DNA of 64,000 nucleotides from Octopus sinensis. Lineage: Eukaryota. The notes under the pieces are model-generated. The model was not told the origin of the DNA and searched no databases. It was given only the letters and a program-made list of their open reading frames with translations. The translations under genes and the position numbers were made by a program. The DNA lies in NCBI RefSeq assembly GCF_006345805.1, contig NC_043003.1, forward strand, positions 109,182,001 to 109,246,000, in the 5' to 3' direction. Positions 47,474 to 50,529 of the stretch are shown one piece after another; within the stretch, counting starts at the first letter, position 1, and the number at the start of each line of letters is the position of its first letter.

Positions 47474-47542
47474 AATCATCATCATCGTCGTCGTCGTCGT
47501 CGTTGTCGTCGTCATCATCATCATCATCATCATTATTATTAT
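45097..47542. repeat. About 2.4-kb compound trinucleotide array (GTT/GCT, then CAT/CAC/CGT/AAT)
   Basis: Read directly from the sequence. Similar shorter arrays at 49890-50305 and 51680-52025. Confidence 0.95.
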
Positions 47543-47840
47543 TCCCATTGGTACCTATTGTTATAGGGTTTCTTTCTGTTTTAAACCTGCATCACCCCGT
47601 CACTACCCCCACCGCTACCCCCTCTCACTCCATCCTACCCCCCCACCATCATCACCACCGCCGCCGCCACTGCTACCACATTCTAGTTATCTCTATTTAG
47701 CAATCTTTATATTTGGATAATTTCTGTTTCTTTTAGAGATGCATCACTGTCTGTTGGGACTACCACTGTTACTGCTGCTGCTACAACCACCACCAGCACC
47801 AGCACCACCACCACCACCATCACTACTGCTGCTGCTGCTG

Positions 47841-47885
<45 letters not shown>

Positions 47886-48439
47886 TGTGTTGTTTGTTGC
47901 AGTACTACACTTTAAAGTTAATTTCTTCCAGGATCCCTGAGGTGTGTGTGGGGGGGGGGACAAAGAAAGAGAAAGAAAGAAAGAGGAGAGAGAAAGAGAG
48001 GTGAGAGAGAGTGCAGATTCAACTTTAGATATTTTATTGTGTCATTTTTATTTTTATTCTTCTACTCTCTTACTTGTATCAGTCATTTGACTGTGGCTAT
48101 GCTGGAGCACCACCCCAAAGGGTCTTTTAGTCAAAGAAATTGACTCCAGGACTTATTCTTTGTAAGCCAAGTATCTATTCTATCTGTCCCTTTTGCTGAA
48201 CTGCCAAGTTATTGGGATGTAGACATGCCAACACTGGTTGTCATGTGAAGGGGGGGAGGAGCAAAACACAGACACACACACACAAACATATATATATATA
48301 TATAAATACAGTGTACATTTAAACACATAAGAGATGGCCATAATAGGACATCTAACCCACTAGAAGGAGTAGTTAAAATCCAAACCACTATTAGGGGTAA
48401 TTTCGAAAGGGAATGAAAAATAAAAACATTTGCCATCTA

Positions 48440-48514
48440 TTTCCTGGACCATGGTTACAAGCTATCTTCAGCAAATAAAGTTATTTGCTAGGCGAAGCTC
48501 TCATCAGCAGGAAA
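48440..48514 (-). ncRNA. Type I hammerhead with long stem II and one core substitution
   Basis: tttcctg-CTGATGA-gagct[...agcaaata act ttatttgct...]agctt-GTAA-ccatgg-TC-caggaaa. 7-bp stem I. Confidence 0.7.
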
Positions 48515-48965
48515 GCCAAAGATTAACATATAAGCCCAAGGCAATACAGAACATGCCACGTGCTTACATGTTATAACGTTTCAAATCCACTGCGCAAGCG
48601 CAATTTTTTATTGGCAGCGAATAGAAATAATGCTGATTTTCTTCCAAAATTAGCCAAAAAATTAACAAATTTCAGGGTAGTAAAAGTTATTTACAAATTT
48701 TTTTACCACCAGTGGCCTAGCGTGTAGAAAAACTAGTCAATAGACTATATATTATTCATTATAAATACAGTGTACATTTAAACACATGAGATGGCCATTA
48801 AAGAACATCTAATCCGCTAGAAGGAGTAGTGAAAATCCAAATTACTATTAGGGAATGAAAAATAAAAACATTTACCATCTATTTCCATGGTGGAGTTGAA
48901 AAATTATAACATGGAAGCACGTGGCATGTTCTGTATTGCCTCGGGCTTATATGTTAATCTTTGTC

Positions 48966-49004
48966 TTTCCTGCTGAAGATAGCTTGAAACCATGGTACAG
49001 GAAA
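48966..49004 (+). ncRNA. Compact type I hammerhead with intact core boxes
   Basis: tttcctg-CTGAAGA-tagctt-GAAA-ccatgg-TA-caggaaa, with an ACCATGGT palindrome. Confidence 0.75.
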
Positions 49005-49998
49005 TAGATGGCAAATGTTTTTATTTTTCATTCCCTTTTGAAATTACCCCTAATAGTGGTTTGGATTTTAACTACTTCTTCTAGTGGGTTAGATGTCCTA
49101 TTATGGCCTCTTATGTGTTTAAATGTACACAACATTTATAATGAGATGCAGTACGAAGCTTTGTCAGTGAACAGGTCGCGGTCTCAAAGCGATGAAAATA
49201 TTTTGACAAATTAAACTTAAATGTTGAAGTGAATCTAACGGATTTTGTGTGTTTCTTATAAACACCTTCCACGCTGCAATTGTTTTCGTTCCAGCACACG
49301 ATCTCAGATCAAGACATTCGCTATGCAAGTACATCTCCATAAAGTATTTCTAATGAATGATATATAGTCTTTTGACTAGTTTTTCTACACTCTAGGCCAC
49401 TGGTGGTAAAAAATTTCTAAATAATTTTTTACTACCCTGAAATTTATTAAATATATATATATACAACGAGCTTCTTTTAATTTCTGTCTACCAAATCCAC
49501 TCACAAGGCTTTGGTTGGCTTGGGGCTATGGTAAAAGACACTTGCCCAAGGTGTCATGCAGTGGGACTGAACCTGGAACCATGTGGTTGGGAAGCAAGCT
49601 TCTTACCACACAGCTTTGCCTGCGCCTATGTTTGAAAAATATTTATTTTTGCTTTGTTTCTTGCTGGTTCAGTACGGTCTCCTCTGCAGTCAGAGGAGGG
49701 GCTAATCATAATGGAGATTGTCATCATCACTTTAAAGCCTACTTTTCCATGGACATAAACAAAATGGATAAACCTGACTGGTTTCAAATCTCATTTGATC
49801 TTCTTTGGCAGTAGAGTATCATATTTTTGTTGAGATATATCGTCTGTGTTTCTGTTAGTTTTGAAAATAATAAAGAATTTAGTAATACATCATCACCATC
49901 ATCATCATCACCAGCATCATCGTCGTCGTCATCATTGTCGTCATCGTTGTCATCATCATCATAAACATGATCATTGTTATCATCATCATCGTCATTGC

Positions 49999-50029
<31 letters not shown>

Positions 50030-50529
50030 TTTATCATTGTCATCATTGTCGTCATCAACACCATCAACATCATCATCATCATCATCATCATTATCATTGT
50101 CATCATTGTCATCATTGTCGTCATCAACACCATCAACATCCTCCTCATCATCATCATCATCTTCATCGTCATCATTGTCATCATTGTCGTCATCAACATC
50201 ATCAACATCATCATTATTATCATCATCAATGTCCTCCTCCTCCTCCTCCTCATCATCATCATAATCATCATAATCATCATTGTCCTCATCATCGTTATCA
50301 TCATGGTTTTGATGTCCACTTTTCCATGGTTTCATTCGTCAGATGGGATTCCTTAAAGCAGTTTATATAGTCCGATGCCTTTCTCACTGCCAACCCTTGA
50401 TTCTTTTCAAGCAAAGTAGCATTTCCCCAGGATTGAGCATCTTTCCATTAAAAATTGGAAGTAAATCACACTGCTTGCATGAGCACAAGTTTTTTTTTAT
50501 TCTCTCTCTCTCTTTATTTCCTCATGTTC

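Follow-up and report, generated by a model that had tools for sequence, protein, structure and literature searches.

Two described systems come closest to the element reported here. Non-long terminal repeat (non-LTR) retrozymes, whose units bear a type I hammerhead motif, are known from animal genomes (Cervera and de la Pena 2020, PMC7229834); cephalopods do not occur in the main text of that paper, and our literature searches, with supplements outside their scope, found no paper describing hammerhead retrozymes in cephalopods. Penelope-like elements (PLEs) leave insertions whose hallmarks, according to the part of Craig et al. (2021, PMC8557442) available to us, are 5' truncation, partial tandems, an adjacent inverted 5'-truncated copy and a tail at one end, with a (TA)n bias in Naiads. 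A link between retrozymes and PLEs has been proposed from their co-occurrence and from homology to a pseudo-LTR (pLTR) in Xenopus, with the mechanism declared open in the accessible text of the preprint (Li, Clavereau and Pollet 2026, bioRxiv 10.64898/2026.07.22.740005). For octopus, the available part of a recent repeat annotation reports PLEs and 893 unclassified families of short interspersed nuclear elements (SINEs) and makes no mention of ribozymes (PMC13282606). Here, we analyzed a stretch of 64,000 nucleotides from Octopus sinensis (NCBI RefSeq assembly GCF_006345805.1, contig NC_043003.1, positions 109,182,001 to 109,246,000 of the forward strand; called the window below), which contains a copy of a high-copy repeat with a hammerhead motif.

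In our reading, window positions 48288 to 49463 represent a single old insertion into a (TA)n microsatellite, namely of a non-coding repeat of ~459 nt that bears a type I hammerhead motif. The insertion has two outward-pointing arms, one of them with a second repeat nested in it, and was likely made by target-primed reverse transcription (TPRT) of a longer-than-unit RNA by a PLE enzyme; we give this reading as a whole a probability of roughly three in four. The family to which the copy belongs is a new cephalopod member of the animal non-LTR retrozymes by motif, size class, composition and lack of an open reading frame (ORF), as read from its genomic copies. Its layout matches the published PLE hallmarks, and the family is likely mobilised by PLEs, the partner PLE being one that we infer.

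Layout of the insertion and of its family

Positions in the unit (q1 to q459) are counted along the minus strand, from window position 48759 down to 48301, and an arm is a contiguous stretch that is co-linear with the 459-nt unit. Outer ends of arms recur at two sites, S1 (q455-14) and S2 (q92-105, mapped up to q120 in a shorter subfamily). The minus arm runs from q316 to q459 and then from q1 to q459, ending in (AT)n; its S1 end merges into the left microsatellite, where BLAST extends the match to 48288. The upstream part of this arm is a tandem repeat of the first 144 nt of 48301-48759 (84-97% identical) and is 17 nt shorter than its counterpart in the full unit, owing to one 15-nt and one 2-nt gap. 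Minus and plus arms are 94.8% identical (238/251 aligned positions) and the tandem overlap is 92.9% identical (118/127), values that exceed the best other scored copy in the genome (89%); the arms have diverged from each other by ~5-7%. The coordinates of all features are given in Table 1.

An earlier note on this DNA, drawn from the letters alone, had described about 1.3 tandem 459-nt units on the minus strand, an upstream unit that ends near 48886 and about 2 nt from the predicted cut, a switch to an inverted copy that crosses the unit junction, and the absence of an ORF. Our comparison bears out each of these points: the partial unit follows the full one, the inverted copy crosses the junction and resumes behind the nested repeat, and the longest ATG-initiated ORF overlapping 48200-49550 has 75 aa. 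The unrelated insert that the note placed in the inverted copy is an independent repeat and starts at 49145 instead of 49131.

Table 1. Features of the two-armed insertion and its immediate flanks, in window positions
Feature	Position	Strand	Basis or remark
Left flank microsatellite, (AC)n then (AT)n	48270..48304		One side of the (TA)n target; from sequence
Full 459-nt unit, q1-459, minus arm; outer (3') end at S1	48301..48759	-	Repeat comparison
Type I hammerhead motif of the full unit	48440..48514	-	Motif reading, family alignment, fold, Rfam match on intact copy L003
Partial upstream tandem unit, q316-q459; inner (5') end 48886	48760..48886	-	Repeat comparison
3-nt joint ATG between the head-to-head arms	48887..48889		Sequence
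Inverted arm part 1, q170 to q459/q4, crossing the unit junction	48890..49144	+	Repeat comparison
Plus-arm hammerhead remnant	48965..49004	+	Sequence, compared with the family
Nested unrelated ~200-nt high-copy short repeat	49145..49343	+	Genome search, flank sequence
Inverted arm part 2, q451 to q98; outer end at S2	49344..49450	+	Repeat comparison
Right flank (AT)n, other side of the target microsatellite	49451..49463		Sequence

The unit is non-coding, has a GC content of 30-34% and gave 3369 first-look candidates in the genome. Two samples of its copies were drawn with short anchors: sample 1 comprises 93 occurrences of a 22-mer at q319-340, which has 173 exact matches in the genome, and sample 2 comprises 100 occurrences of a 19-mer at q436-454, which has 1501; the reversed control of each gave 0 matches. 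Because sample 1 is anchored at q319, inner ends just upstream of that anchor are inflated in it. The anchor of sample 2 lies 120 nt away from the ribozyme, and 96 arms of this sample were analyzed. Both samples, together with 30 loci from a search with the unit, yielded ~270 non-redundant arms, and the family amounts to at least 1,500 arms in the 2.7-Gb genome. Its arms are 5'-truncated or over-length, with a median of 233 nt, more than 459 nt in 15 of the 96 arms and a maximum of 1037 nt (2.3 units) in sample 2.

The outer ends of these arms follow rules. In sample 2, 41 of 96 outer ends fall at S1, 35 at S2 and 20 elsewhere, and a (TA)3 or longer run lies within 24 nt of 45 of the 76 S1 or S2 ends, compared with 2 of the 20 other ends. 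Both sites are themselves UA-rich tracts of the unit (S1, UAUAAUGAAUAAUAUAUA; S2, UUAUUAAUAAUAAU). Among 95 non-redundant head-to-head pairs, 62 join an S1 arm to an S2 arm, 3 are S1/S1, 1 is S2/S2 and 29 are unclassifiable, which makes S1/S2 pairs 62 of the 66 classifiable ones (binomial p = 2e-14). The pair rule was replicated in sample 2 alone (29:0:0) and is obeyed by the window, whose minus arm ends at S1 and whose plus arm ends at S2. Tail-to-tail neighbours are rare, with 2 and 1 in the two samples (3 in total). Furthermore, 7 of 62 S2 arms are at most 110 nt long and end a little 3' of S1, as would be the case if both primers sat on a single RNA.

The repeat nested in the plus arm belongs to a family of its own, with 3308 first-look candidates in the genome, 40 of which were scored as 90-94% identical over almost the full 203 nt. 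It is flanked by ATTTATAATGA at 49134-49144 and ATTTCTAATGA at 49346-49356, which likely represent a target-site duplication. None of 11 other copies of the insert lies inside the 459-nt family, and on this ground the idea that the ~200-nt repeat specifically parasitises that family was rejected for this pair. In 6 of the 11 copies (TA)n comes next, and in 4 of the 11 a segment of the copy's own 5' part is present in inverted, head-to-head orientation. At loci L032-L042, the ~200-nt repeat usually ends in CTCCGTAA beside (TA)n. The insert resembles a second short retroposon with a preference for TA, which inserted at the TA-rich tract around q459/q1 in the plus arm, and the ~200-nt repeat is likely another PLE-type non-autonomous retroposon.

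As for the surroundings, the flanks at 48050-48260 and 49465-49645 are repeats of extremely high depth in DNA and RNA runs, and in one DNA contig 48166 is linked to 49487 by (AC)n(AT)n. Given these high-depth flanks and this contig, the insertion site of the hammerhead element appears to have been a microsatellite inside an abundant SINE-like repeat. On either side of the region, at 47500-47890 and 49880-50300, there are long and imperfect arrays of trinucleotides (TCA/TCG/CCA-type, period 3/9/12).

Hammerhead motif and inner ends

In the full unit of the window, helix I of the motif pairs UUUCCUG (48514-48508) with CAGGAAA (48446-48440). The core CUGAUGA follows at 48507-48501, then a long helix II, GUAA at 48458-48455, helix III ACCAUGGU and a C. 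The predicted cut, GUC/CAGG (the slash marks the scissile bond), falls between 48447 and 48446, i.e., at q313/q314. Two lesions stand out: the minus copy has A13 changed to U at 48457, a U found in 1 of 42 subfamily-A sequences, and the plus-arm remnant keeps GAAA and GUA/ and has lost 37 nt between two CUGA words, that is, the rest of CUGAUGA and most of helix II. Because of the A13U change and the 37-nt loss, both ribozyme copies in the window are likely dead, to judge from their sequence, and a Rfam search of 48000-49700, which holds these mutated copies, gave no hammerhead at E ≤ 10. The window copy itself, apparently dead, is of no functional interest; the most interesting feature of the family is the rules of its ends.

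In the family, by comparison, the majority sequence is canonical, and 25 of the 42 copies of subfamily A retain all 11 core positions as well as H17. Across 71 copies, 86.9% of the cells in the proposed helices are paired, compared with 20-44% with slid partners. Two helix II pairs, 22-68 (AU 36/GC 27) and 23-67 (GC 34/AU 33), changed on both sides between the subfamilies; since each subfamily passes these compensatory changes on, they amount to roughly two events. Helices I and II appear in the centroid folds of two copies of subfamily A, one of them the window's own. On its own, helix III is too short to form in the fold; its palindromic sequence suggests that the family ribozyme would act as a dimer. 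The intact copy L003 (1636-1708) aligns to the full Rfam model Hammerhead_1 (RF00163, positions 1-45) over helix I, CUGAUGAG, helix II, CGAAAC, helix III and GUC, with a 28-nt insertion in helix II, at E 2.9e-6 and 31.1 bits, below the gathering cut-off of 34 bits.

Folding the monomer had been proposed in the earlier note as a check. In 8 of 8 whole units, the circular fold is more stable than that of dinucleotide-shuffled sequences (z = -1.5 to -5.2). The thermodynamic stability of the 88-nt ribozyme region by itself is unexceptional (z = -0.6 to -1.2). One of 71 copies, L094 (1131-1211), lacks 7 nt (CAUGGUC) up to exactly the predicted scissile bond; this deletion could be the scar of a jump between cleaved RNA ends.

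The minus-arm homology of the window ends at 48886, which is q316 and therefore 2 nt off the predicted cut, on its 3' side. Across sample 2, only one arm in 96 (L232) begins at q314, and 3 of 96 inner ends fall in q311-320, with a background of ~3.6 per 10 nt. A sharp accumulation is found at q321, the exact start of 7 of the 96 arms (background 0.36 per nt; Poisson p = 1e-7). This position directly follows the final base pair of helix I, at the foot of that helix, and lies 7 nt from the scissile bond on its 3' side. A further 20 of the 96 arms begin in q261-300, in the helix II hairpin, and in 11 of the 62 S1/S2 pairs both arms turn in this hairpin, forming a symmetric joint. The inner end of the window at q316 is part of a loose scatter on the 3' side of the ribozyme, without a peak at the cut, and the link between inner end and ribozyme cut site holds only loosely.

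Two candidate observations were discarded. The enrichment of inner ends at q311-320 in sample 1 (11 of 175 arms) is an edge effect of the q319 anchoring and is gone in sample 2. Likewise, L103 had been considered a permuted, monomer-like copy whose two ends both lie at the ribozyme; it is really a longer arm into which another insertion, with a 4-nt duplication, has come.

A proposed Penelope-type route of insertion and its rivals

Elements with a GIY-YIG endonuclease are abundant in this genome, with 5029 first-look candidates and frames of up to 883 aa. The endonuclease is C-terminal in the PLE ORF, which identifies these elements as canonical endonuclease-bearing (EN+) PLEs. Of the PLE copies that were aligned, all 14 run into (TA)n at their 3' ends, and 6 of the 14 (L155, L161, L159, L160, L158 and L137) have a further tail of ~30-38 nt (cccactcgta...), placed between a short TA run and additional (TA)n. 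This tail matches the published one-sided "tail" of PLE insertions. For comparison with the 459-nt unit, we used 30 PLE loci, each with 1.5 kb on either side of the endonuclease domain and essentially from one PLE family. A simple motif scan for hammerheads in these 30 loci gave 1 weak match. We also observed a conserved motif in the PLE 3' untranslated region (UTR) (L140, 2361-2400; 16 aligned copies), UUGAUAA, a GGUUC stem, GAAAC and AUGU, which is kept across two subfamilies with differing flanks. Its form is reminiscent of a minimal hammerhead in which C3 and G8 are replaced by U3 and A8, and it gave no Rfam hammerhead at E ≤ 10.

We propose that a PLE endonuclease would open a (TA)n tract, and that the TA 3' ends on the two sides would then base-pair with S1 and S2 in a single RNA, from where they would prime cDNA synthesis. 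Such two-site priming on one RNA would explain the near-absence of same-site pairs as well as the S2 arms that stop at S1. At the folded ribozyme, either at the foot of helix I or at the palindromic helix II hairpin, the cDNA would stop, switch or fold back, and the hairpin could let two antisense cDNAs, or one folded back on itself, pair and copy each other to form the head-to-head joint. Arms that pass the cut site or exceed 459 nt would need an uncleaved multimer, a religated circle or template jumps. More generally, an insertion of more than one unit implies a template longer than the monomer (multimer, circle or template jumps), and genomic copies do not discriminate between these three.

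A more specific version of this route is tentative, and we regard it as possible but doubtful. Each two-armed insertion may have been written from one RNA, probably a circle, with the ends of a (TA)n break priming on dedicated S1 and S2 pads ~85-100 nt apart, and the folded ribozyme, not its cleavage, may set the stop (q321) and the turnaround (helix II hairpin). If true, this would be the first rule-like description of retrozyme integration by Penelope-type enzymes, and the one-sided PLE "tail" would be explained as well. In any case, thousands of dispersed insertions with readable ends provide testable constraints on where reverse transcription starts, stops and joins. For annotation, such copies are likely filed among "unclassified SINEs".

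Several observations weigh against our reading of the locus as a PLE-made insertion of a longer-than-unit hammerhead RNA. Asymmetric and symmetric pairs both occur, the latter (symmetric within 13 nt) in 17 of 62, and because they coexist no single joining mechanism, be it twin priming or fold-back, covers all copies. None of the ~270 arms formed a large tandem array of the kind typical of published retrozymes (maximum 2.3 units). At the gathering threshold, Rfam gave 0 matches in the whole window and 0 in 20 family loci, and the best intact copy stays 3 bits under the RF00163 cut-off. In subfamily B, which has a unit of ~418 nt and UUGAYGA instead of CUGAYGA, core position C3 is a U in 27 of 29 copies and two helix I pairs are lost; because of these changes, part of the family may cleave poorly, and the sequence suggests that the subfamily B ribozyme, given its weaker helix I, is either hypoactive or dimer-reliant. 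On the PLE side, copies of the unit and family share no homology with the 30 sampled PLE loci, apart from one 43-nt AT-rich match.

The RNA-seq data add to these points. No RNA run was listed as containing the stretch. In the three raw runs described below, depth over the element is 0-40, equal in both orientations, and roughly follows genomic copy abundance; q90-300 is nearly uncovered, and there is no pile-up of molecule ends. The earlier note had proposed a cephalopod non-LTR retrozyme family of circular RNA. Membership among the retrozymes stands, and the circular RNA found no counterpart: no unit-length or circular RNA was detected in three raw RNA-seq runs of a related labelled organism, in which library type or species may hide such RNA, the libraries being probably unsuited. 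No joints or ends speaking for a circle were seen in these three runs and one contig run. One joint in the RNA and contig data goes back 439 nt (48768 to 48330), as expected of a tandem copy with a ~20-nt deletion. The three runs thus give no support for an abundant unit-length or circular RNA, and silence of the element is not implied.

Self-cleavage itself might also have set the inner end, as the earlier note had it: 48886 would then be the 5' end of a self-cut RNA and the copy a cDNA of a self-cleaved linear multimer or opened circle, and copies should begin at the scissile bond. In its favour, 48886 lies 2 nt from the predicted cut, and the arm could start at q314 if an extra T is counted as an indel. 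Other 1.3-unit arms begin nearby (L004 at q317, L019 at q312, L178/L179 and L211 at q321), both arms of the pair L079 start from q312, L232 starts from q314, and the deletion in L094 reaches exactly to the cut. However, starts in sample 2 are at background level around the bond and peak sharply 7 nt downstream, the enrichment in sample 1 came from its anchoring, and most arms read through the site (71 copies). Starts at q310-q311 (L074, L128, L132 and L230) even include GGUC or GUC from 5' of the cut and so cannot derive from cleaved RNA. We therefore consider this explanation unlikely. What stands of the note's proposal is a retrotransposed non-coding hammerhead repeat of more than one unit with a 5' inverted copy; its expectation that copies are circular permutations with 5' ends at the cut does not hold, as outer ends are fixed at S1 and S2 and only the single arm of sample 2 noted above starts from q314. 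Fixed ends unrelated to the hammerhead, which the note itself had listed as speaking against it, are what we found for the outer (3') ends.

The remaining explanations do without a separate retrozyme, without PLEs or without retrotransposition. If the repeat were the pLTR or terminal part of an autonomous PLE, its copies would be 5'-truncated PLE insertions (solo pLTRs); PLE hammerheads do lie in pLTRs and most PLE insertions are 5'-truncated in the available text of PMC8557442, and Xenopus retrozymes match PLE termini according to the accessible part of the preprint (bioRxiv 10.64898/2026.07.22.740005). The lack of homology to the 30 PLE loci makes this improbable in octopus, as do the 3' UTR of the abundant PLE (L140, 1795-2478), which is a different sequence, and arms that wrap the unit up to 2.3 times with no ORF between. 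In line with the earlier note, family copies are not attached to a PLE ORF and are flanked by unrelated DNA. A short, non-coding, 5'-truncated, high-copy repeat might equally be taken for an ordinary SINE moved by a long interspersed nuclear element (LINE), with its inverted copies made by L1-style twin priming, in a group of genomes with hundreds of unclassified SINE families (available part of PMC13282606), and the T5-6 run after S2 in read-through units could be a Pol III terminator. This is very improbable to us, because the window has no tRNA, 5S or 7SL match at the Rfam gathering threshold, family ends carry no poly(A) or LINE-type tail and are found at a fixed pair of internal sites next to (TA)n, the content of the two arms overlaps, unlike the partition of one RNA in L1 twin priming, and tandem over-length copies exist. 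Finally, the 48886/48890 joint between the arms is bridged by none of the listed independent contigs (four DNA runs), which are too short for it, as would suit an assembly artefact or a local DNA rearrangement by satellite expansion and inversion, without retrotransposition. Such an origin is scarcely credible given that the head-to-head layout with matching end points recurs at 95 other loci, that thousands of copies are dispersed, and that the arm/insert joint is bridged (49060-49176) by one independent DNA contig of another labelled organism.

Comparison with Penelope-like elements and animal retrozymes

With PLEs, as far as the available text of Craig et al. goes, the octopus family shares 5' truncation, partial tandems, an inverted 5'-truncated copy at the 5' end, (TA)n targets and a hammerhead in the repeated part. 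The one-sided 30-40-bp "tail" of PLEs is comparable to the extra stretch, q15-99, that the family has at one outer end; unlike the PLE tail, this stretch is 85-100 nt long and internal to every read-through unit. Also unlike PLEs, the family has no reverse transcriptase or endonuclease ORF and no detected homology to the sampled PLEs. Naiads are reported in the same text to prefer (TA)n, to occur in Octopus and to lack canonical hammerheads; the (TA)n-ending PLE described here has a C-terminal endonuclease.

With metazoan non-LTR retrozymes, as described in the available text of PMC7229834, the family has in common a non-coding, low-GC unit of a few hundred nucleotides with a type I hammerhead motif, head-to-tail copies, a copy number in the thousands and a circular fold of greater stability than shuffled sequences. 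Their genomic repeats measure 150-450 bp, and the octopus unit, at 459 nt, lies just above. They lack LTRs, a primer-binding site (PBS) and a polypurine tract (PPT) and have a GC content below 45-50%, compared with the 30-34% given above for the octopus unit, for which no specific search for a PBS or PPT was made. Like the axolotl and newt motifs, the octopus motif has a helix III that is a short palindrome and is predicted to work in a dimer. Metazoan retrozymes occur as dimers to large multimers, whereas the octopus copies are mostly dispersed and range from sub-unit length to 2.3 units. Unlike the retrozymes described in that text, the octopus copies have their outer ends fixed at two points in (TA)n and are joined head-to-head to a partner arm.

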